From NCBI GenBank assembly GCA_016235825.1, contig JACRIL010000184.1, positions 1 to 61,213 on the forward strand: DNA of 61,213 bases, in the 5' to 3' direction. The translations under genes and the position numbers were made by a program. The notes below the pieces were generated by a model. The model ran no database searches. It saw only the letters and a program-made list of their open reading frames with translations, and had not been told where the DNA came from. This DNA is from Planctomycetota bacterium. GTDB taxonomy: Bacteria > Planctomycetota > Phycisphaerae > SM23-33. Shown here piece after piece: positions 17,693 to 58,352 of this stretch (position 1 is the stretch's first letter; every line of letters begins with the position of its first letter).

Positions 17693-18670
17693 TTATTCTC
17701 CCTCTCCGACCTTGGCCTTTTCGTCGTTGGTCCAATCCTGAAAGTACCTGGCCTTCACGTCGTCCAGCGTCTTGCCGGATTTCAGGGCCTTGACGGCCTG
17801 CTCGATGAGCCGGGTTGACGCGATACGGCGGAGACGGTTTCGGTCGATGCCATCCCGGAGCTTTTTGACCCAATTCAGCAGCGTCCGCGTCTGCTCGGCA
17901 TCGAGGGCGCCACGAGCGATGTTGTGCTCCAGCACCGTGTCGTACCCGACGTGCAGCTTGGCCAGTACGAACCTGTCCAAAGTGGCGCCGTCAAGTGCGT
18001 TGCGGCCAACGTACACCATGTCGCCGCCGCGACCGTAGGTGTTGGCAGCCGTAACAATCAGGCAATCAGGATGACGCTCGATCACCTCGCCGGTAACCGG
18101 ATTGCAGAGAACCCCATTGGCAAGGGCCGCGTTGATGCTGACCATCACGTTGCCGTCGGCGGCGTCAACTTCGTCGAACAGGAACAGGCCGCCGTTGCGG
18201 TAAATCTTGATGAACGGCGATTCGACATATGCCCAGGTCCCGTCAGCCGTGGGCAGCATACGGCCGAAGATATGCGTCTCGGTTACGCCGGCCGACAGGC
18301 TGATGAACGCGAACTTGCGACCGATCGCCTTGGCAATGTGCTTGACCAGCGTGGTCTTGCCAGTGCCGGCCGGACCCACCAGCATTATGTTCTGGTGACC
18401 CTCGGAGACCAGTGACAAAAGCTCGTCGAATTGCTTGTGCGGCGTCTCCGACAGCTTGTTCACCGCACCGGCAATGTGCACCTCCAGCGTCCGGGGCAGC
18501 ATGGCGCCGGCAATGGCGCTATCAACGATATCCCGCACCTTGGGCTCATCGACCAGGCCGGTCAGCTCCAGATGCTCCTGAATGGCGCCGGCCAGCTTTC
18601 TGAAAACTTCTTGCGGCTCAACTGCGGTTTTACTATCATCGGTTGCGATCATGGAAGGTTCCTCTTTCAT
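17693..18670 (-). CDS. AAA_5 (MoxR/CobS-like) ATPase
   Basis: Walker A LVGPAGTGKTT, Walker B LFLFDEVDAA, sensor TAANT, and LDGATLDRF arginine region. ATG at 18670; the track start at 18676 is TTG. Confidence 0.8.
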   Translation of the reverse strand: MKEEPSMIATDDSKTAVEPQEVFRKLAGAIQEHLELTGLVDEPKVRDIVDSAIAGAMLPRTLEVHIAGAVNKLSETPHKQFDELLSLVSEGHQNIMLVGPAGTGKTTLVKHIAKAIGRKFAFISLSAGVTETHIFGRMLPTADGTWAYVESPFIKIYRNGGLFLFDEVDAADGNVMVSINAALANGVLCNPVTGEVIERHPDCLIVTAANTYGRGGDMVYVGRNALDGATLDRFVLAKLHVGYDTVLEHNIARGALDAEQTRTLLNWVKKLRDGIDRNRLRRIASTRLIEQAVKALKSGKTLDDVKARYFQDWTNDEKAKVGEGE

Positions 18671-18676
18671 GGTCAA

Positions 18677-18707
18677 GGCCGGCAGGTGTCCGAAGCACCT
18701 GCCGGCC
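18677..18707 (-). promoter_or_regulatory. Perfect 12-bp GC-rich hairpin with cUUCGg-type loop immediately 5-prime of the AAA_5 gene
   Basis: GGCCGGCAGGTG / CACCTGCCGGCC (18677-18688 / 18696-18707). The minus-strand loop is CUUCGGA. No U tract follows. Confidence 0.5.
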
Positions 18708-18803
18708 GGCTTCGTTTATGGCCCGGACCACCCGGACCAGTTTGCATCAAGGCCCTGACCCGGAGTTGCACCGGGCGACACTGATAGGGCCGACTTTTTT
18801 GGT

Positions 18804-19016
18804 TCACTTGCTCTTCACGATGGTTATCTGGAATTCGGTTCCGTCGTCCATCGTCAGCACCAACCCCTTGTTGGTTGTCAACATTCCGACCTCCTCGAAA
18901 GTGCTTATCCGATGAATGCAATCGGGCAGCATTCCTGAATCCGGGTCGATGCTTTGGATTACTTCCCGAATCCCGTGCGCCACGATGTTTTCTGTGGTTT
19001 TCTCGTTCGTAATCAT
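18804..19016 (-). CDS. 70-aa hypothetical protein
   Basis: ATG at 19016 with AAGGGA upstream. Protein-like composition. It is the first ORF after the long leader. Confidence 0.45.
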   Translation of the reverse strand: MITNEKTTENIVAHGIREVIQSIDPDSGMLPDCIHRISTFEEVGMLTTNKGLVLTMDDGTEFQITIVKSK

Positions 19017-19019
19017 GGT

Positions 19020-19735
19020 TGCTAATCCCTTTCGTAATGGGCGGTATTGCCCAAAGCCCGCCGGGGCTTATTTACCCCGGCGGACGAATACCAAAGGGCG
19101 GGCGGGCTTATAGGTTCTTGTTGCTGGCACGCAGCCAGCGAACGTCGTCCGTGCCGCCCTTTGCCCTTTGGAGGTTTTAGGCCGTTCCGCGGCCGAACTG
19201 ATTTGCTACCTGGCGGCGTGGAGCAGGGCGATGGCCCAAACGACCACAGCGGATAGAGGTATGATGATCCACATCTTGCACACCCTTTCGGTTGGATTGC
19301 CACTATTGGCAAGGCCCGTTCACGGAGTCGAACCGTGAAACACCACCGGGCCGGAATTTCATTTAACGGTTGCTTGCTTCCCGCGTACTTGTCTTGCCGC
19401 CAGGCTGCGTGCCTGTCCTGTGTCTTCCAGCGCGTTGCCGGGTTCTTTCTGTTTCCGATCGGGTCGTCCACCGGACTGAGCCGGTTTCCCGCATATTGGA
19501 AGGTTGCGTGCAAGGGGCCGCGTTCTTTGCTTCCGGTATAACCTGAGAGGCGGACATAACTCCCGGCCACGCTGACAACGCCTGCTAACAGCCTGTCAGC
19601 CAGCCAACCTCTTTATTCCCGGCCACATTCATCAAGAGGGCGTCTTGACCGCTGACAGACCTGCCTTTATTCGGCGTCCAGCCTGCCCGCGGGCACACGT
19701 TTTTCCTGATTCAATTTTAAGTTTCCTGTGCTTCT
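19020..19735 (-). ncRNA. Candidate long structured leader / large ncRNA (class unknown)
   Basis: ORF-free stretch downstream of the promoter at 19742-19770. Multiple perfect helices: 19058-19083, 19091-19171, 19180-19194, 19313-19352, 19471-19484, 19593-19658. A 10-mer is duplicated at 19561-19570 and 19617-19626. Confidence 0.35.
19297..19352 (-). other. tRNA-like acceptor/T-arm minihelix followed by a short hairpin
   Basis: Minus strand reads GGCCCG-GTGGTGT-TTCACGG-TTCGACT-CCGTGAA-CGGGCC, then TTGCCA-ATAG-TGGCAA. GGTTCGACTCC is identical to the T-arm 11-mer of the host tRNA-Gly (29608-29618). No D or anticodon arm. Confidence 0.4.
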
Positions 19736-19741
19736 ATCATA

Positions 19742-19770
19742 ATTATAGTATCCACAAGCACTTATGTAAA
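19742..19770 (-). promoter_or_regulatory. Near-consensus sigma70-type promoter TTTACA-N17-TATAAT
   Basis: Minus strand: TTTACA (19770-19765), 17-nt spacer, TATAAT (19747-19742). It lies in an AT-rich island and points into the structured leader. Confidence 0.5.
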
Positions 19771-19813
19771 CTTAATAGCGGCAACGACTTAAGATTATTT
19801 GCGGTTCTAAGCG

Positions 19814-19836
19814 GATGTAAGTAATTGATTTACATC
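19814..19836. promoter_or_regulatory. Operator-like inverted repeat GATGTAA-N9-TTACATC
   Basis: 7-bp perfect arms at 19814-19820 and 19830-19836 in the AT-rich island. Nearby repeats: ACTTGCAAA twice and GCGG(G)AATTTT twice. Confidence 0.3.
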
Positions 19837-20332
19837 GACTTGCAAAGATTGTTGCGGAATTTTGCGGGAATTTTGTTGATAGGCCAGTTGGTCTACGATA
19901 CAAACACTTGCAAATAAGCGACTTGTGAGTCGAAGGCAGCTGTCTTATGACGCAGCCGCCCTCTGTGACCTGTCTATAATTTACGAGATATCACTCCGAA
20001 ATTTGCGAGATGCCGCTCTTGTCCTGTCGCAAAAACCTCTCAAAGCATCCCGGCAATCCAGAACCACCCGTGCGGCCGTACGGCACGCGACCATACTCCG
20101 GCTGTTCCGAGGCATGACTGTGCACGGGCCAAAACATAACCTTTGAAATATCAATCGCTTACGCACTCACAGGCTCTCACTGCCACAGCTTTTTTTTGCG
20201 AAAGAAAGAAACAAAAGTAACGTTCCCGGGTGTTCCCCCCAAGGTGCATTTCTTTCGCTCGCTCTCGGAGGACCCTACGCCATCTCACTTTTTTTATCTC
20301 ATCGTGTCTCATTGCATATCGAATTGGCCCTA

Positions 20333-20716
20333 TTATCCCAAAGTCACGCTTTTCTTCAATACCAAGATATCCTTGCTTACTCCCGGCCCGTCATAGCCCA
20401 AGCAGTAGTGCCATGCATCGGCTGGCGGATCGCACTGACGCCTGCCTGAAGACCATTCGACCTTCGTCCCGCCAATCCCGTCCAGGCAGAAATACTCGCG
20501 ATATGCGTCAAGGCGGAACTTCCGGCAGTCTCGGCATCGGCAATGCCTCAAAATGGTCGCATTCAGAGGGGGTGGAGGGCGGTTTTGCGAGTCTAGCGAG
20601 TCTAGCGAGTCTATTTCAGCCCGTAATATATTTTTTATATTGTATCTCTTCAAAATTGTTTTAAGGGGTTGAAACTGACTCGCTAGACTCGCTTCATTTA
20701 TTGCGTGGCATTTCAT
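20333..20716 (-). CDS. Possible small Cys-rich protein (start uncertain)
   Basis: The C-terminal 70 aa (CRCRDCRKFRLDAYREYFCLDG...CDPPADAWHYCLGYDGPG) look protein-like. The N-terminal 55 aa are encoded by the iterons and AT-rich tract, so a TTG start at 20551 (72 aa) is an alternative. Confidence 0.35.
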   Translation of the reverse strand: MKCHAINEASLASQFQPLKTILKRYNIKNILRAEIDSLDSLDSQNRPPPPLNATILRHCRCRDCRKFRLDAYREYFCLDGIGGTKVEWSSGRRQCDPPADAWHYCLGYDGPGVSKDILVLKKSVTLG

Positions 20717-20826
20717 GTGTTTGCATTGCCCTCATATTGATTTCACCCGCTTTTATTCCTTGCAATCTTTGCATGCATGCCAACTTCCCCCATCATCCCG
20801 TCGCGCATGGACCAGAATAGACTCGC
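20587..20826. repeat. Iteron cluster flanking an AT-rich tract: candidate phage replication origin
   Basis: GCGAGTCTA three times in tandem (20587-20613), then an AT-rich 60 nt, then inverted copies at 20677-20692 and 20818-20826. The 12-mer GGCATTTCATGT is repeated at 20707 and 20850. The cluster lies directly 3-prime of the primase-helicase gene. Confidence 0.5.
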
Positions 20827-20855
20827 TGGACTCCCAAGGTCTCTTTCATGGCATT

Positions 20856-23270
20856 TCATGTTTTGTATATCTTCCACACTACTCCCGCCCGGTTGTACTT
20901 GCTGGAATCAAAGTCCAGATAGGCGGATCGTATGACTTGACGCCGTAACCGCCTGAATTTGTTCCCCACCTGCTTGGGAGTCGGGGCCCTGCCCGGGGGA
21001 CAACCCACCAGGTTTTCCAGGGCTGCACGCATCGCTACAGCCGTCTGGTCCTTGGGAGAATACTGCATCTGCACCGGGTATAGCCTGCCGATCATCTCCG
21101 AAACAACCACGCCCTGGTCAAAGGGGTCATATTCTTTCCATGCCGTAAGCAACTGGCCAAGGGCATCGGTTGACGTATCGGACGTTTCGGCCAGCCTTAT
21201 CCGCGTCAGGCATGGATCTGGCAGCCCCACCCAGACGACCGCCTGCCTCACCAGGTCCGACCAACCCTCAAAACTCCCAAAAGGCTTCAGACCCTGCGCC
21301 GGCCTGCCGGACCCGCAATAGGCCGACAGGATAGTCATGGCCGAAGACAGCAACCGACCGCGATTGGCGCCGATCCATCCCAGCAGATCGGGATGCCTGA
21401 AGCCGGTCCGCTCCTCTGGTTTTTCATCCATCACGTCCAACCTGATATGTATCACCCGCCTGGCAGTGTCCGCCGCGACCGCCACGTTGTTCCCGGTTGC
21501 GTACCAGACCGGCAGGAGCGGCAGGTCGATCTCCTCGCTGCGGCCCAGTATTCGATCCTTCCAGCGTGTGCTGGTCAGTGCACGGTCGAGGGCGTCATTG
21601 CCGAATGCACCCTCCAGGTTATCCATCAAAACCATCCGGTCGCCCGCGATGGCTATGGCCGTGATCCGCTTGCGCATCTCGTCAGGATCGTGGGCATAGC
21701 TGCTGACCGGCATCTCCCTGCCCAGCAGGATTCGCCCGATGACCTGGGCCAGCAAACCCTTGCCCGCCCCGCGTATGTTGGCGTCGATCAGGAACAATGG
21801 CGACGGGCCCATAAACGCGAACCGGCCCAGCGGGGTCAGCAATGCCGCCAGCCATGCCGCCCTGTGCTCCTGGGCCTCGAACCTGAAGTCGCAGACCACT
21901 TCCATCAGGTCGTCCAGGGCCGCAACCGCATCATCTATATTGACCTCGTGGTGCACTGTCGGGAAAACCCCCTCGCTCTCGAAAAGCACACCGGTCTGCC
22001 CGTCATAGCCCGGATCCTGCCAGACGCTGCCGTCGGCCCTCAGCACCGGCGAGTCCGACACGCCCGAAAGATGTCTTATCCCCGGCCATTCGGCCCGGGC
22101 CTCAATAGCCGACACCAGCCATGGCGCCGGATGGGCCGGAGCAGTTTGGCCTTTTTTACAGGCCTTGATAAATGATGCAAAGCGGGTCATCCGCTCCCGC
22201 AGGTTCGCCGCCGGCACGCTCTGGATCGTCGGCGAGCCGATCGGCCGCCTGATCCCGTCCATGGGCTGCAAATCCCGGATAACTCGTACAAGTATTCCGC
22301 CCCTCTGGTAGAGGTCCGGATCGGCCCGCAGCGCGACTATCGTATCGGCGACCACGCGGTGCTCTTCGGTATCGATCAGGATTTCCGGAAGGGTGCCGCC
22401 ATCCCTGTCACCTCGCGCCGACAAGGCCTCGCCCCGGGTGCACTTTCCCTCCGCGTCACGCAGGCGTTTGGTTATCTGCCCTTTGGACCACTCCTTCGGG
22501 AACGGACGCTGTGCAGCGTATTGGCACATACACGCTAACGCCTCATCTACGGACAGATCATGCTCCACACACCTGCAGCACGCCGAAAATAGCCGGAATG
22601 ATCCGTCAAAATTGTCCACGATATTCATCGCCAGCATAGACTTGAGACACCAGGCCATACGCTCATCCATCGACATGGCCGGCTGGACCATGGGTTTGGC
22701 GGGTTGTATTTGTTTGCCAGGCCAGAGGACCTGGCATAATTCATCCAGCTCGATCTGCCGATCTTCCACATTCCGGCTGGTCGCAGTCCACAGCCTGCCC
22801 GTGACCGTGAAGTAGCGTTCCTTGTCAAATATCTCCAGCCTGCCGGATTTGCCCGGCCCCCGGCCGCGGACTGTGCACTGTGCAAAGTCCGGCTTGCAGC
22901 CCCTGAAGAAAAGTTTCAACCCTTTGCCCGACGGACTGATCTCGCTGTACGTGTTGAAGTGCTCGATCACTTCTTTTGCCCAGTCCTGCAGGTTGCCGCT
23001 ATCATCCAGGCAATTGTCCAGGTCAATGCCGCAGAATCCATCATCGTCGCTGAAGACGAAGCCGATCCCGTCATATTTGCCGGCAGCGGCCACGGCGTCT
23101 TCAAAATCGCACCAGGTGGCCATGTCAGTGCTGCTGGCCTTCCTGCCGGTTCGGGCGGCATACGGAATCTTTCGGGATTCGCCTTTCTCCCCCGGCTCGT
23201 ATCGCCAGCAGACCCATTGGTCGAGTTCCTTGAGGCATGAAGGAATGTTTTCGACAAGCAGCTGTGCCAT
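20856..23270 (-). CDS. Primase-polymerase (Prim-Pol) / P4-D5-type SF3 helicase
   Basis: N-terminus WVCWRYEP...GIGFVFSDDDGFCGIDLDNC...EISPSGKGLKLFF. C-terminal Walker A NIRGAGKGLL. ATG at 23270, just after the upstream stop. Confidence 0.85.
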   Translation of the reverse strand: MAQLLVENIPSCLKELDQWVCWRYEPGEKGESRKIPYAARTGRKASSTDMATWCDFEDAVAAAGKYDGIGFVFSDDDGFCGIDLDNCLDDSGNLQDWAKEVIEHFNTYSEISPSGKGLKLFFRGCKPDFAQCTVRGRGPGKSGRLEIFDKERYFTVTGRLWTATSRNVEDRQIELDELCQVLWPGKQIQPAKPMVQPAMSMDERMAWCLKSMLAMNIVDNFDGSFRLFSACCRCVEHDLSVDEALACMCQYAAQRPFPKEWSKGQITKRLRDAEGKCTRGEALSARGDRDGGTLPEILIDTEEHRVVADTIVALRADPDLYQRGGILVRVIRDLQPMDGIRRPIGSPTIQSVPAANLRERMTRFASFIKACKKGQTAPAHPAPWLVSAIEARAEWPGIRHLSGVSDSPVLRADGSVWQDPGYDGQTGVLFESEGVFPTVHHEVNIDDAVAALDDLMEVVCDFRFEAQEHRAAWLAALLTPLGRFAFMGPSPLFLIDANIRGAGKGLLAQVIGRILLGREMPVSSYAHDPDEMRKRITAIAIAGDRMVLMDNLEGAFGNDALDRALTSTRWKDRILGRSEEIDLPLLPVWYATGNNVAVAADTARRVIHIRLDVMDEKPEERTGFRHPDLLGWIGANRGRLLSSAMTILSAYCGSGRPAQGLKPFGSFEGWSDLVRQAVVWVGLPDPCLTRIRLAETSDTSTDALGQLLTAWKEYDPFDQGVVVSEMIGRLYPVQMQYSPKDQTAVAMRAALENLVGCPPGRAPTPKQVGNKFRRLRRQVIRSAYLDFDSSKYNRAGVVWKIYKT

Positions 23271-23275
23271 TGGAA

Positions 23276-23824
23276 TCACCTCGAACCTGTCTTGAGGCCA
23301 AAATCCAAACCGCCAAGCTGAACCCGGCCGTCCCGATATGCCCGCAGCACCGTCAATTCGCCGCACTGGAACTTGATCGCGTCACGATCCGGGAATGCGG
23401 TGCCGACATGCTGGTGAGACATTACGCTTGCCAGCGGACCATGCTGCTTGATCGCCGGTAAAATAAATCCAAACGACGGTATGACGCTGCCACCAGGAAG
23501 ACGCCATGCCGCATTCATGTAGTCCAGAAGTTGGCTTATCCCGGGACCTATCTTCTCACCCGAACGCTTTATCTCGACAACTATGCAGCCGCTTGCCCAT
23601 CCTGCAGCCGCAAGCTTGGCGCTCGGGAACAGAAGAACGTCAGCCCTGAGCCCGTTATACTTCTGGAAATGGTGCTTCCAGAGTGCCACACCCTCAATCT
23701 GCCTGTAGACTCCGAACAAACCGGTCGCGTTCACAAACTCGATGAAAAATTGCTCAGCCTGCTCCTCTGTCTGCCAATTACCGCAGGTAAGCGCCTCATG
23801 GATATCTTCTTCATTGCCAATCAT
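23276..23824 (-). CDS. PD-(D/E)xK-like nuclease-fold protein
   Basis: ADVLLFP...GCIVVEIKRSGEK gives a D...ExK arrangement. ATGA overlap with the upstream gene. Assignment is tentative. Confidence 0.4.
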   Translation of the reverse strand: MIGNEEDIHEALTCGNWQTEEQAEQFFIEFVNATGLFGVYRQIEGVALWKHHFQKYNGLRADVLLFPSAKLAAAGWASGCIVVEIKRSGEKIGPGISQLLDYMNAAWRLPGGSVIPSFGFILPAIKQHGPLASVMSHQHVGTAFPDRDAIKFQCGELTVLRAYRDGRVQLGGLDFGLKTGSR

Positions 23825-28126: not shown

Positions 28127-29497
28127 CTAGCCAACCTGCTTCATGACGTCGATGAGTTTTTGGAGGTCCCGCTCGGCGTACACCGCATCAGTTATCTGGG
28201 CGCTGGAATGCCCCAGCACCAGTTGGGCCGCCTCCAGCCCGAACTGCTTTCGCAGCTCAGTCCCCGCAACATGGCGCAGCTGGTGCGGATGCCAGCGGTG
28301 AGTTTTGTGCCATGACTTCAGGTCGGCACGATCATTGGGGCTGAGGCGATTGCGGAATACGACCTTGCTCTCGCGCCTGCCGCCTGGCAACAATCGAGGC
28401 CTCAGATGCTCAGGCGGCGGAAACGCCTGCTGGCAGGCGTACTGGATCGCCCTGTGATAGGTATTAGACGTGTAATATTCTCCCGGTTTTCTCTCTGGAT
28501 TGTCCGCTCGGTTTGTGCCGGGACCATTACCGCATGATGCCGGGGTCTTCCTGCTCTCGTGGAGCCTGGCGCGCCTTTCCGCATCCGCCTCCCTGGGGCT
28601 GAACAGATACGCATCCACGGCCCGGCCCTCCAGGAAACGCTTTATGACATCCTGGGCCCGCGGCCCGAAGATTATCACACGCTCCTTCTGACGGTACGCC
28701 GTCTTGTGCTCCAGGGGTTTGTACGTCCAGACCCCGGTCTTGCGATCCATGGCAATATCGATCGGTCTCATCTTCAGGAGTTCCCCGCCCCTTGCGCCCG
28801 TCAGGATCTGCAGATCGATAAGAGCGTCAATCTGCCGACACAGGTAGGGTCGAACCGCATCAACCATCTCCAATGAGACAGGTTTCACGGGCCGGCCCTC
28901 GCGAGCCTGGCATCTGCCGTACTTGAGGGACTCGACCGTGGCAAGACGCTGGTGAACCTCCACCGGGATCATCTCCTGGGCCGACGCCCACTTGAATACC
29001 CGGCGGATCCGCTTGACCTGCTGGTTGCAATAAACCCTTGACCAGGATTGACGGGGCGGGGTTTCCTTCAAATCGCCCTTGATCATCTGTTCGCGGAGAA
29101 AACAGAGCTTCTTCGGACCGAACTCCGTCACGTGGAGCGATCCGAAGAATTTTTTGAGGAGGCGCAGGACAACCTTGATGCAGTCCCTCTCGTGGGGCCT
29201 GTAATACGACTCGGCAAATCGCCAGTAAGCCAGGATCACTTCCCCGACATTAGTTGACGAAACGCCGCAACCCAGCTGTTGTTCCGAGAGATCGAGCAGG
29301 CATTTGCCGTTTGCCTGCCATTCGGCAAGGATCCGGTGATATCGCTCCCAGCTTTCGGGACTGTCGTATTCCCCAAGCCAGTAGTCCCGGCGAATCCTGG
29401 TCCGGGCGTCAGTCAGGGTTACAACGGCCTGATGCGACCCCTTGCGTCTTCGGTACGAAGGCATCTTTTTAGGCATGAGCGGTGCTCCTTTCGGCAT
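28127..29497 (-). CDS. int: Tyrosine recombinase / phage integrase
   Basis: C-terminal HQLRHVAGTELRKQ...LVLGHSSAQITDAVYAERD (R-H-R-Y family) and an upstream LTGARGGELLKMR box. ATGs at 29497, 29476 and 29464 are all possible starts. Confidence 0.85.
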   Translation of the reverse strand: MPKGAPLMPKKMPSYRRRKGSHQAVVTLTDARTRIRRDYWLGEYDSPESWERYHRILAEWQANGKCLLDLSEQQLGCGVSSTNVGEVILAYWRFAESYYRPHERDCIKVVLRLLKKFFGSLHVTEFGPKKLCFLREQMIKGDLKETPPRQSWSRVYCNQQVKRIRRVFKWASAQEMIPVEVHQRLATVESLKYGRCQAREGRPVKPVSLEMVDAVRPYLCRQIDALIDLQILTGARGGELLKMRPIDIAMDRKTGVWTYKPLEHKTAYRQKERVIIFGPRAQDVIKRFLEGRAVDAYLFSPREADAERRARLHESRKTPASCGNGPGTNRADNPERKPGEYYTSNTYHRAIQYACQQAFPPPEHLRPRLLPGGRRESKVVFRNRLSPNDRADLKSWHKTHRWHPHQLRHVAGTELRKQFGLEAAQLVLGHSSAQITDAVYAERDLQKLIDVMKQVG

Positions 29498-29596
29498 TTT
29501 GCGCGGTGTCAAACCGCGCAAATTTGTGCTTCAGGCCGCACCACCCAACACAGGTGGGTGTTCCGAGTCCTCGGAACCAGCTTGAGTTACATCAAA

Positions 29597-29669
29597 AGCG
29601 GGCGAAGGGAGTCGAACCCTCAACGTCCAGCTTGGAAGGCTGGAGCTCTAGCCATTGAGCTACGCCCGC
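29597..29669 (-). tRNA. tRNA-Gly (anticodon UCC)
   Basis: Hand-folded cloverleaf: GCGGGCG-TA-GCTC-AATGGCTA-GAGC-T-CCAGC-CTTCCAA-GCTGG-ACGTT-GAGGG-TTCGACT-CCCTT-CGCCCGC-T. CCA is not encoded. Confidence 0.9.
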
Positions 29670-29762: not shown

Positions 29763-29880
29763 CAGTTACAGGGGGATTGTGGTGCGGGCATCCTGCCTGC
29801 AACTCCATGAATAAAAAATGCAGGCGAGACGCCCGCACCACAAGATGGCGAAACATTGTTTGGTTTTCCCCTGTAACTGC
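29763..29880. repeat. Nested palindromic REP/MITE-like element
   Basis: Outer 12-bp arms CAGTTACAGGGG / CCCCTGTAACTG (29763-29774 / 29868-29879). Inner arms GTGGTGCGGGCATCCTGCCTGCA ... TGCAGGCGAGACGCCCGCACCAC. Confidence 0.6.
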
Positions 29881-41162: not shown

Positions 41163-43268
41163 TCAATCGTCCCAAAAAGTGTATTTCTTTCGGAAGTCGT
41201 CGCCTTTCCAGGCGGCGGCCAGAAGGCCGGGGCGTTCAAACTGCTTGCGGCATTTCTCCAGAGACACAAGGTCTAGGGTGCCGGCGACGCGGTAACTGAC
41301 GAAATTAACCCCTTTCTCCGAGCCGTCGAAGTAGCCGTCGGGCGTTACAACGAGCCATTCCTTGCCGGCATCCAAAGAAATCAGGGAGCAAAGTTCCTTA
41401 CCCGTCTGCGTATCCCAGATCCGCGTTGTCCCGTCGTCGGATGCGGTCAGAACGCGCCGGACGTCTCCGCTTATCGCCACGCTGTTGACGCTCCCCGTGT
41501 GCCCCTCGAATGTATGAATTTTCTTTCCGGTCTTAACATCCCACAAGATCGCTGTTTTGTCATCAGAACCAGTCAAAATGTTATTACCATCGTCGCTAAT
41601 CACCACACTCTTGACTCTTTCCTTATGTTCGGAAAAGATCCGAAGTTCTTTCCCTGTCTTTGCATCCCAAAGGATCACCGTCTTATCCCCAGAAGCAGAC
41701 AATAAAAGACTGCCATCCTTATTTATGGCAACTCCGTAGACTGGTTCCTTGTGCCCTTTGAAAACTTGGAGCTGCCCGCCCGTATGGGCGTCCCACAAGA
41801 TGGCATTTTTGTCCCAAGAACCTGTCAGAACGCGGTTACCATCTTCGCTCATCGCCACGCAGAAGACGCCGCTTGTGTGCCCTTCAAATGTGCAGTTTTG
41901 CTTACCTGTCTTGGCATCCCAAAGGATCGTTGTATGGTCCATAGAACCTGTCAGGGCGTTCTTGCCGTCTCTGCTCAAAGATGAACTGATAATCCAGTCC
42001 TTGTGCCCTTCAAAGGTCTGAATTTTCTTGCCGGTTTGTGCGTCCCACAGGATTCCTGTTTTGTCGGCAGAACCAGTTAAGATGCAGTTACCATCTCCGC
42101 TCATCGCCATAGTGGTTATTCTGTCCGTATGACCGGAAAAGGCCTGGATTTCTTTGCCAGCTTTGACATTCCATAAGACTGCTGCCTTATCTTCAGAACC
42201 AGTCATGACACGACTGCTATCTGTGCTTATCGCAACACTTTCAACTGGATCTGTGTTTCCTTCAAAGTTATGAATACTTTTACCTGTCTGGACGTCCCAT
42301 AAAATCGCTGTCTTGTCATCTGAGCCAGTCAAAACATACCGGCCATTTGCACTCAAAAATACGCTGGTTACAACGCCCTTATGTCTTTCAAAACTCTTGA
42401 TTATTTTGCCTGTCTGCACATCCCATAGAATTGCTGTCTTGTCATAAGAACCGGTCAGAACTTGCTTTCCGTCTATACTCAACGCAACACTGTGGATTGA
42501 GTTCTTGTGCCCTTCAAAAGTTTGGATTTCTTTACCTGTCGTTGTGTCCCACAAGATTGCTGTGCAATCCCAAGAACCTGTCAGGGCACATTTGCCATCA
42601 TCGCTGATCGCGCCGCTAACAATCCGGTTTATGTGTCCGCCAAAGGTCCATATTTTATTGCCTGTCTGCGTATCCCATAAAACTGCTGTCTTGTCCGCAG
42701 ATCCGGTTAATATACGATTGCCATCTACGCCAATTGATACCGTAGTAACCGTGTCGGAGTGCCCTTCAAACATTTTGTTTTTTTTACCTGATTTGACATC
42801 CCACAGAATTGCCGTCTTGTCTTCCGATCCTGTTACGACATACTTCCCATCTTTGCTTATCACTACGCTTTCAATCGATCCCTTATGCCCAGCGAAAATC
42901 TGTTTTTTTTCCCCGGTCTGTGCGTCCCACAGGATTGCTTTGTTGTCCCCGGAACCAGTCAGAACACGCTGTCCATCTCCGCTCATGGCCACACTTCAAA
43001 CACCGAACGCGTGACCAGTGAAGGTCCGAAGTTTCTTGCCTGTCTGCGCGTCCCACAAAATCGCTGTATTGTCCCAAGAGCCAGTCAGTATGCGTTTAGC
43101 ATCTTCGCTCATCGCCAAACTGGTGATTCCACGAGTATGCCCAATTTGAACGACAAGTTCCAGTCGGTTTGTTTCCTGAGTTGCCGCCGGTCCGGACCGG
43201 ATCATCAAAACAATGAATGCCACGCCTAACGCCATGGTCACTCTTTGTTTCATGTCTGCATTCTCCAA
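41163..43268 (-). pseudogene. Signal-anchored 14-repeat WD40 protein interrupted by one in-frame TGA (42996-42998)
   Basis: ORFs 42996..43268 and 41163..42992 are in the same frame: ...FTGHAFGV-TGA-SVAMSGDGQRVL. There are 14 units of the type GH....V.SVA.S.DG..ILTGS.DKTAILWD. G+C is visibly lower than in the neighbours. Confidence 0.7.
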
Positions 43269-52482: not shown

Positions 52483-52545
52483 CCCGCTTGAGCGGGTCCT
52501 GCCTGCACAAAAAATAAAATTGCAGGCGGGACGCCCGCACCACAA
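52483..52545. repeat. REP-like hairpin pair related to 29763-29880
   Basis: CCCGC-TTGA-GCGGG, then TCCTGCCTGCA-(A-rich loop)-TGCAGGCGGGA, followed by CGCCCGCACCACAA. Confidence 0.5.
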
Positions 52546-58250: not shown

Positions 58251-58302
58251 AAAAGGCTGTTTTTCGTGGAACACACGGGTGAGCCTGTTCGGCGAAACTG
58301 GA

Positions 58303-58352
58303 ACGCCCGCACCATAAAGGGCAAATCACTGTTTGATTCTCCCAGGCAACTG
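58303..58352. repeat. Half-copy of the 29829-29879 repeat arm
   Basis: ACGCCCGCACCATAAAGGGCAAATCACTGTTTGATTCTCCCAGGCAACTG aligns with ACGCCCGCACCACAAGATGGCGAAACATTGTTTGGTTTTCCCCTGTAACTG. Confidence 0.4.

Follow-up and report, generated by a model that had tools for sequence, protein, structure and literature searches.

The stretch from position 19,020 to 19,735 of contig JACRIL010000184.1 from a Planctomycetota bacterium (61,213 nt in total, referred to as the window in the following) is, with a probability of roughly 60%, the 5' leader of a prophage operon, composed of an ancestral, structured, cis-acting part and an inserted cassette. According to this explanation, a conserved sigma-70-type promoter would transcribe the second long operon of the prophage, which comprises a 70-aa gene, an AAA/CobS-like gene, DUF7192 and DUF6573 and continues to the terminase, portal and head genes, through a 5' untranslated leader. 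The conserved leader presumably acts in cis on the nascent transcript and would set the transcription or translation that reaches the operon. This could proceed either via binding of a protein or ligand at a conserved junction or via altered elongation or termination of RNA polymerase. The distal ~350 nt, on through the 70-aa gene, represents a moron-like cassette inserted into the leader. The ancestral part is best filed as a divergent and interrupted member of an undescribed modular leader-RNA family in Planctomycetota prophages, which is of a known general kind. The initial annotation of the stretch had proposed one structured RNA of ~700 nt as a candidate. This applies to ~19735-19371, which belongs to the leader family and shows compensatory changes, whereas the stretch as a whole is not a single unit.

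The leader family and its covarying helices

The stretch 19020-19735 does not code for protein, as had been proposed, which follows from codon statistics, the lack of a Pfam match and a broken frame in a near-identical copy. The only long open reading frame (ORF) in it, 19022-19570 (182 aa), was rightly taken for shadow sequence. It has a GC content of 0.58/0.58/0.60 at codon positions 1/2/3 compared to ~0.6/0.45/0.75 in prophage genes, a codon log-likelihood of -0.10 compared to +0.08 to +0.32 for genes, and no Pfam match. Its sole relative among 5.8 billion proteins is the 97%-identical product of the near-identical copy, locus L028 (98% DNA identity), where a 1-nt deletion breaks the 182-aa frame. 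A protein-coding gene at 19022-19570 was therefore rejected, as codon bias is flat, the only homologue is near-identical and the frame is not preserved there. No frame of the leader has a positive codon score on either strand, and no pseudogene remnant came up when the leader was compared by tblastx with all loci and with the remaining window. The next ATG is indeed found at 19016; as a caveat to the ORF-free status, a 22-codon ATG ORF (19274-19206) lies within the stretch.

The annotated promoter TTTACA-N17-TATAAT on the minus strand agrees with the consensus at 11 of 12 positions in the promoter scan, and transcription is expected to start at ~19735. The -35 and -10 elements and the upstream block CCGCTATT are conserved in eight aligned relatives (alignment A2), and the same promoter elements are also present in L208-L212 and L214. 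The family promoter thus consists of the block CCGCTATT, a -35 element TTGNCA and a TATACT-like -10 hexamer. A dyad, TGTAAATCAATTACTTACA, ~90 nt upstream of the start site is a further conserved block in A2 and a candidate binding site for a regulator. The related loci were found via the ATPase and DNA patterns and comprise L001, L002, L007, L044/L045, L046, L047, L048, L056, L097, L208-L212 and L214. In all of these ~15 Planctomycetota prophage loci the same promoter is located 220-530 nt upstream of the same AAA/CobS-like gene, and gene callers place no gene between promoter and ATPase in L046, L048, L208, L209 and L210. The window shares this arrangement, with the conserved promoter upstream of the AAA_5 gene and an ORF-free leader (A2, nhmmer, gene tables).

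Homologue search and covariation analysis, both suggested with the initial annotation, yielded homologous leaders and, for part of the stretch, compensatory base changes. The family-wide 5' motif GAAUCAGGAAAAACG is found at 19712-19698. Promoter-containing nhmmer alignments reach 19371-19430 in L097, L056, L208, L047 and L214, and when only the transcribed part is used as query, the same block, 19486-19426, is matched in six loci. Since a nine-sequence full-length MAFFT alignment was too gappy for RNAalifold to be informative, the leader was analysed module by module. For eight leaders (MAFFT alignment A4), the consensus structure, which has six helices (H1-H6, Table 1) with 32 pairs, was compared with 500 shuffles. 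In A4, 89.7% of the cells are paired, compared to 72.8% in the shuffles, and 23 pairs show compensatory double changes, compared to 11.3; none of the 500 shuffles reaches either value. When the 3' partners are slid by one to three columns, only 24-46% are paired. On the sense strand ~24 G-U pairs stand against 7 A-C oppositions, and therefore the folded strand is the transcript of the conserved promoter.

The window has kept H4-H6 and lost H1-H3. In the family, the H4 hairpin (19546-19572, apex GGGAGUUAUGUCC) shows double changes at seven of its eight pairs; the apex is common to L097 and L046, with a variant form in L209. H5, here also named P_a, closes the block-B domain and encloses H6, a hairpin at 19484-19471 and a near-invariant 27-mer, which reads CGGAAACAGAAAGAACCCGGCAACGCG in the window (19457-19431) and CGGAAaCAGAnAGAACCCGGCAaCGCG as the almost invariant family sequence. 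P_a occurs in five sequence versions that all pair (CGAUGAC/GUCAUCG, CAAUCGC/GCGGUUG, CUGCCAG/CUGGCGG, CGGCCAG/CUGGCCG, and CUUCCA/UGGAAG in the window), and the pairs of the window are thus kept via compensatory changes. A covariance model, R1, built from five relatives with the window left out and roughly calibrated, matches 19510-19421 with 45.9 bits (E = 2.4e-9), which is the only strong match on both strands of the 61 kb. In 550 kb of other loci all matches of R1 are family leaders, among them that of L056, a locus outside the seed. Judged from its sequence, such a junction, invariant and closed by a covarying helix, has the architecture that a site for a protein or ligand, or an RNA acting on the polymerase, would be expected to show. 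A simple terminator would have no need of this architecture.

The near invariance of the 27-mer might also be attributed to a DNA-level site within the leader blocks, such as an operator, an origin, a packaging site or a second promoter, all the more as the region adjoins the replication module and an origin-like palindrome. The 27-mer has the form GGAAC-N16-CGC, a possible likeness to promoters of extracytoplasmic function (ECF) sigma factors. However, the helices around the 27-mer covary, and as five versions all pair, it is a single strand that folds; moreover, G-U pairs show a strong bias towards the sense strand. A DNA-level site is therefore very improbable.

All six perfect helices described in the initial annotation (19058-19083, 19091-19171, 19180-19194, 19313-19352, 19471-19484 and 19593-19658) are present on the minus strand, yet only one of them is placed like a family structure. 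This is the hairpin 19471-19484 inside H6, where relatives also have a hairpin that varies in length and sequence; in L028 its loop is changed with a 1-nt deletion and its stem is kept. The helix 19593-19658 and the duplicated decamer GTGGCCGGGA, confirmed at 19561-19570 and 19617-19626, are located in a window-specific local duplication of UGUCAGCG...GUGGCCGGGA (19657-19617, 19576-19560), and both are outside the family consensus. The remaining four (19058-19352) lack comparative support as structure of an RNA family, because they lie inside a lineage-specific insertion without homologues.

Apart from the helices shared with the window, a strongly conserved 5' leader domain is found in most relatives (L056, L047, L208, L210, L007, L002, L209 and L097). 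It has the form GCUGGUAAC ... GGUGGCUAAUCC ... GGGCCGAA ... ACGCCCCGACGAUA ... AGGAACA-hairpin-CAACCA (e.g., L047, 3850-4060) and looks riboswitch-like, without a match in Rfam. The window has no counterpart of this domain; GCUGGUAAC, GGUGGCUAAUCC and GGGCCGAA are absent or degenerate, and few or none of the pairs in H1-H3 are left (Table 1).

Table 1. Positions of the leader elements, the cassette and neighbouring prophage features in the window.
Feature	Position	Strand	Remark
Conserved dyad TGTAAATCAATTACTTACA	19816-19834	minus	candidate regulator site
Sigma-70-type promoter	19742-19770	minus	-35 TTTACA 19770-19765, -10 TATAAT 19747-19742
Ancestral leader part	19371-19735	minus	~365 nt, homologous to related prophage leaders
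Helix CUGUCAGC/GCUGACAG	19593-19658	minus	window-specific, read from sequence
H1	19651-19647 with 19618-19614		3/5 standard pairs in window
H2	19586-19582 with 19536-19532		2/5 standard pairs in window
H3	19578-19577 with 19541-19540		0/2 standard pairs in window
H4	19572-19562 with 19554-19546	minus	7/8 standard pairs in window
H5 (P_a)	19502-19496 with 19430-19424	minus	6/7 standard pairs in window
H6	19492-19488 with 19463-19459	minus	4/5 standard pairs in window
Block-B domain	19421-19510	minus	P_a enclosing H6, hairpin and 27-mer
Lineage-specific cassette	~18796-19370	minus	between ancestral leader and conserved 3' segment
tRNA-like minihelix	19313-19352	minus	5' edge of cassette; 6-7 bp acceptor-like stem, T arm TCACGG-TTCGACT-CCGTGA
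22-codon ORF MWIIIPLSAVVVWAIALLHAAR	19206-19274	minus	hydrophobic peptide; between minihelix and hairpin cluster
GC-rich perfect hairpin cluster	19058-19194	minus	19194-19180, 19171-19091, 19083-19058
70-aa gene	18804-19016	minus	coding signature +0.22
Block C, conserved 3' leader segment	18653-18795	minus	directly upstream of AAA/CobS-like gene
Terminal hairpin	18677-18707	plus	covarying, family-wide; 22-27 nt upstream of ATPase start codon
AAA_5/CobS-like ATPase	17693-18676	minus	listed from TTG; likely ATG start 18652
PD-(D/E)XK nuclease, AAA_24 protein, primase/helicase	20856-23366	minus	
Tyrosine integrase	28127-29521	minus	adjoins tRNA-Gly
tRNA-Gly	29597-29669		prophage border; sole Rfam match passing threshold in window

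The cassette inserted into the leader

Alignment to the relatives yields two blocks that every one of them shares with the window; the first extends from the promoter to 19371-19430, the second covers 18795-18605. They are 60-120 nt apart in L208 and L097, compared to ~575 nt in the window, and the non-coding sequence 19370-19020 has neither a match in the family (nhmmer) nor a homologue beyond near-identical copies. Because the blocks are near to each other in the relatives and far apart here, with unmatched sequence in between, the stretch spans the ancestral leader and the non-coding part of a cassette. Judged by this comparison, 19370-18796 was inserted into the leader and brought the 70-aa gene with it. 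Besides the four helices mentioned above, the 22-codon ORF and the 70-aa gene thus belong to the cassette. Proteins related to the 70-aa product are encoded in fifteen metagenome loci, all of them in unrelated contexts and with no leader-like sequence, and therefore there is no link between the 70-aa gene and the leader. None of the related prophages has this gene in its leader. In L211 another gene, of 114 aa, is independently inserted in the leader, upstream of the terminal hairpin. Directly after this gene (L211, 1811-1875) a ~12-nt tandem repeat (GTGACYGTGTAT) is found.

At the 5' edge of the cassette lies the tRNA-like minihelix. Its T-loop 11-mer GGTTCGANTCC otherwise occurs only in tRNA or tRNA-like sequences (47 loci and the window), and its 22-mer was found nowhere in exact and degenerate DNA pattern scans. 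It could be a recombination scar or a site for RNase P or RNase Z. As both the minihelix and the terminal hairpin of the family have GAAATTC-GGCC...GGTGTT, a diverged duplicate of that hairpin is another, weak idea; MAFFT left the two unaligned. Several other identities were tried and rejected. A tRNA at 19313-19405 is found neither by ARAGORN at default settings nor by the Rfam tRNA model; of the tRNA arms, the sequence has just the T arm and an acceptor-like stem, and relaxed ARAGORN yields no more than a poor pseudo-tRNA of 93 nt whose 'anticodon' has 4 nt. ARAGORN also finds no transfer-messenger RNA (tmRNA) at default settings, and under relaxed ones many implausible permuted calls across the whole region. 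An att site is not supported either, as the 3' end of the tRNA-Gly (GAGGGTTCGACTCCCTTCGCCCGC) agrees with the minihelix in no more than the T-loop 11-mer, and the acceptors differ.

A 6-bp hairpin separates the minihelix from the 22-codon ORF, whose product is a candidate small membrane peptide by its composition. The cassette may be regarded as a small toxin or membrane-peptide module resembling type I toxin-antitoxin systems, with this peptide as the product and the hairpins as structured mRNA or antisense partner. The ORF ranks third in hydrophobicity among 260 small ATG ORFs of the window, has a gene-like GC content by codon position (0.57/0.43/0.74), sits between strong hairpins and has a single substitution in L028, which is synonymous. 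Nevertheless, this module is highly unlikely. The ORF has no homologues, its 22 codons are too short for codon statistics (log-likelihood +0.02), one synonymous change carries no weight, and the promoter scan found no antisense promoter in 19020-19735.

Within the GC-rich cluster that follows, the hairpin 19083-19058 has a 12-bp GC-rich stem followed by the tail GCUUUGGGC with only 3 U. It appears terminator-like with a weak U tract; the consensus terminator scan does not call it. Most simply, the perfect hairpins of the cassette are its own terminator, processing or stability signals. In L028 (840-861, compared to window 19075-19058) the loop of this hairpin differs at seven of eight positions and the stem is kept; near the contig end this could be a real loop swap or an assembly artefact.

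The whole region folds modestly better than shuffles (z = -2.5 and -2.3 on the two strands), and the entire signal lies in 19040-19360, with z = -4.66 on the sense and -3.56 on the antisense strand. The thermodynamic excess is therefore confined to the insertion, and the ancestral part carries the comparative support from covariation.

Several points weigh against a functional, cis-acting leader in the window. The segment 19415-19735 folds no better than shuffles (z = -0.17), and the structure tested on A4 was predicted from that same alignment. The family is small, with ~16 loci including several close relatives and ~5 independent versions per helix. Block B was found in only 7 of the 16 leaders, and such variation of leader modules between relatives is unusual for a single conserved mechanism. 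No antiterminator or RNA-binding regulator was recognised among the prophage proteins (Pfam, PHROGs), and transcription from the promoter with read-through into the operon is an assumption made from the sequence. Furthermore, because H1-H3 and the motifs GCUGGUAAC and GGUGGCUAAUCC are lost, the leader copy in the window could be decaying rather than functional.

Taken further, the stretch would have no function at the RNA level at all, the ancestral part being a decaying remnant and the hairpins being terminators, recombination scars or palindromes that came with the 70-aa moron. The lost helices and family motifs, the local duplication and the missing thermodynamic signal of the ancestral part would all agree with this. 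The same is true for the stems of the insertion, which are perfectly Watson-Crick paired and fold nearly as well on the other strand, as DNA palindromes do, and for the recurrent use of the insertion site (L211). However, neutral decay would not keep the closing helix of block B by fully compensatory changes and leave the 27-mer nearly unchanged. In addition, both stem substitutions in L028 become G-U pairs, and two loops are changed there with the stems kept. Absence of any RNA-level function is thus unlikely.

Comparison with known phage RNAs

In the searches with Rfam 15 covariance models, which the initial annotation had called for, no family reached the gathering threshold in the region and none relevant appeared at E up to 10 in 18500-21000. 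Likewise, nothing was found in eight related loci, and nothing relevant in the leader of L208, the best-conserved relative, at E up to 10. The suggestion that the element may be new therefore stands, as no Rfam family matches. A cobalamin riboswitch, prompted by GGTGGCTAATCC upstream of the CobS-like gene, was rejected as the relatives have no Rfam match. BLASTN of 18800-20900 against phage and plasmid collections gave no match. A pattern scan with the 27-mer yielded mostly chance matches and L056. The pattern GCTGGTAAC...GGCTAATCC gave 21 viral and at least 120 genome matches, nearly all by chance; only L097, L056, L071 (L007 contig) and L145 (L002 contig) are true members among the matches listed. 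The literature searched contains nothing on this leader family and does not mention DUF7192 or DUF6573, and Planctomycetes are not mentioned in a 224-motif survey.

By analogy, the element would work most like the leader of a phage late operon, such as lambda PR'-tR' or HK022 put. The late leader of lambda (PR'-qut-tR', 6S RNA) and its nut sites share with it a strong, constitutive-looking promoter, an untranslated leader with hairpins and a very long operon including the structural genes. However, no Q- or N-like protein was identified in the prophage, a sense-strand terminator with a U tract is missing from the leaders of the relatives, and the leader described here is much longer, with multi-helix domains that covary. 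The put RNA of HK022 consists of two short stem-loops of ~70 nt and renders RNA polymerase resistant to terminators, i.e., mediates processive antitermination in cis. It is likewise a promoter-proximal, cis-acting structured RNA ahead of long operons and requires no phage protein, and this kind of mechanism would fit. By comparison of descriptions only, it differs in that the conserved part here is 300-450 nt long, modular and variable between close relatives.

The immunity RNAs P1 c4 and P4 CI are regulatory RNAs located in an operon leader and matured by RNase P, with tRNA-like features. The tRNA-like minihelix in the leader resembles them in this respect, but it is lineage-specific and outside the conserved family. 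Moreover, there is no Rfam match, and repeated target sites to which a processed RNA could pair were not identified here. For the terminal hairpin of the leader only, which lies outside 19020-19735, the cis-antisense RNAs P22 sar and lambda OOP are comparable. The candidate ~70-nt antisense RNA at the end of the leader (see below) would likewise cover ribosome-binding site and start codon of the first operon gene and end at a conserved hairpin with a U tract. In this case the transcript is predicted only, and no more than 5 of 13 loci have an antisense promoter that reaches the scan threshold, with 8/12 in the window.

The initial annotation had also pointed to GOLLD and ROOL, which are often found in prophages and near tRNAs and are free-standing RNA genes (PMC5737381). 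The element is similarly large, structured and prophage-borne with tRNA-related sequence nearby. Nothing beyond this context links the stretch to GOLLD, ROOL or HK022 put; cmscan gives no match, and the element invariably forms the 5' leader that connects one promoter to one gene. Nevertheless, a free-standing large trans-acting non-coding RNA, either GOLLD/ROOL-like or a processed stable RNA, would account for the strong promoter, the missing ORFs, the conserved structured domain and the terminator-like hairpins ahead of the next gene. The acceptor/T-arm minihelix directly after the ancestral leader would then define the 3' end as a site of RNase P, RNase Z or the CCA-adding enzyme. Against this, neither the large phage RNAs nor any other Rfam family matches by gathering score or at E up to 10, and the minihelix is limited to the lineage of the window. 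In every relative the leader continues into the AAA gene without minihelix or sense-strand terminator, and because the leaders run directly into this gene the family looks like a 5' untranslated region and not like a separate gene. A free-standing RNA is thus quite unlikely.

More tentatively, it is possible that the leaders form a new class of large multi-domain cis-acting RNA, combined with capture of the minihelix in the lineage of the window. Such an RNA of ~300-450 nt, with at least six covarying helices and the invariant 27-nt junction, would gate the ~19 kb phage operon, either as a sensor of a protein or small molecule or by direct modification of RNA polymerase. The captured minihelix could direct processing by RNase P or RNase Z, which would separate the leader from the mRNA. 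If the leader binds a ligand or acts on RNA polymerase, this would amount to a new riboswitch-like or antitermination RNA class. No regulation of gene expression in phages of Planctomycetota is described in the literature and databases searched. The conserved promoter and the covarying multi-helix leader behind it, with its invariant junction, are a concrete, testable candidate for a new RNA control of a phage operon. The locus also illustrates how such leaders evolve, with modules swapped between relatives and genes inserted more than once.

The end of the leader and the prophage context

Block C, the conserved 3' segment of the leader, gives local alignments to L046, L048, L002 and L044 and nhmmer matches in nine loci. 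The terminal hairpin of the family has the form GGCC-N4-5-GGUG...CACC-N4-5-GGCC and is present in all 13 complete leaders with differing stem sequences. In 12 of 13 loci the antisense strand gives the more stable fold; G-U pairs number 21 on this strand compared to 6 on the sense strand. A U-rich tail is found on the antisense side only (GGCTTCGTTT at 18708-18717 in the window), and the terminator scan flags the hairpin as a plus-strand terminator. Therefore, it is best read from sequence as a putative intrinsic terminator for plus-strand, i.e., antisense, transcription. An antisense promoter-like site is located at a fixed position, with the -10 element ending at +13 of the ATPase gene; five of the 13 loci reach the scan threshold, and direct reading of the window gives 8/12. 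Together this suggests a predicted cis-antisense RNA of ~70 nt (~18646-18716, plus strand) over the ribosome-binding site of the AAA gene, and a conserved terminator on the antisense strand, over the ribosome-binding site of the first gene, may point to antisense control as a second layer.

A prophage makes up the left half of the window. Between its primase/helicase and the 70-aa gene ~1.8 kb have little coding sequence. Downstream of the ATPase follow DUF7192, DUF6573, a ligase-like protein and DUF488, and then the terminase, portal and head genes. Assemblies of Phycisphaerae and other Planctomycetota as well as viral contigs contain relatives of the ATPase. An AT-rich, near-perfect palindrome of ~105 nt (20590-20694) lies between the primase gene and the promoter. 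It gave spurious matches to microRNA precursors and is flanked by repeats of GACTCGCTAGACTCGC at 20677-20721 and 20820-20864; palindrome and repeats are a possible replication origin. A small Cys-rich protein without Pfam match (…RHCRCRDCRKF…CDPPADAWHYCLGYDG…) is encoded at 20333-20560 on the minus strand and may be a zinc-binding regulator. Its gene is kept upstream of the promoter region in L001 (2940-3269) and L044 (1294-1623), with DNA homology in L047. The position between this gene and the conserved promoter is a hot spot for cargo, which lies on the opposite strand and differs by relative: AbiEi/AbiEii in L044 (2529-4057), a helix-turn-helix peptidase M78 protein in L047 (2427-3599) and a 636-aa protein in L001 (3546-5456). 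The equivalent 560 nt of the window (19770-20333) have no gene.

Elsewhere in the window, at least 13 tandem copies with a period of 126 nt are found at 41499-43142, in a minus-strand ORF of low GC content (0.46-0.53; 41163-42992). The product resembles a propeller-like repeat protein and seems foreign by its composition. Finally, a 30-nt repeat, AAAAATGCAGGCG(A/G)GACGCCCGCACCACAA, that contains a hairpin is present in three copies in the host part of the window (29814-29843, 52516-52545 and 58300-58328), one of them just past the tRNA-Gly.

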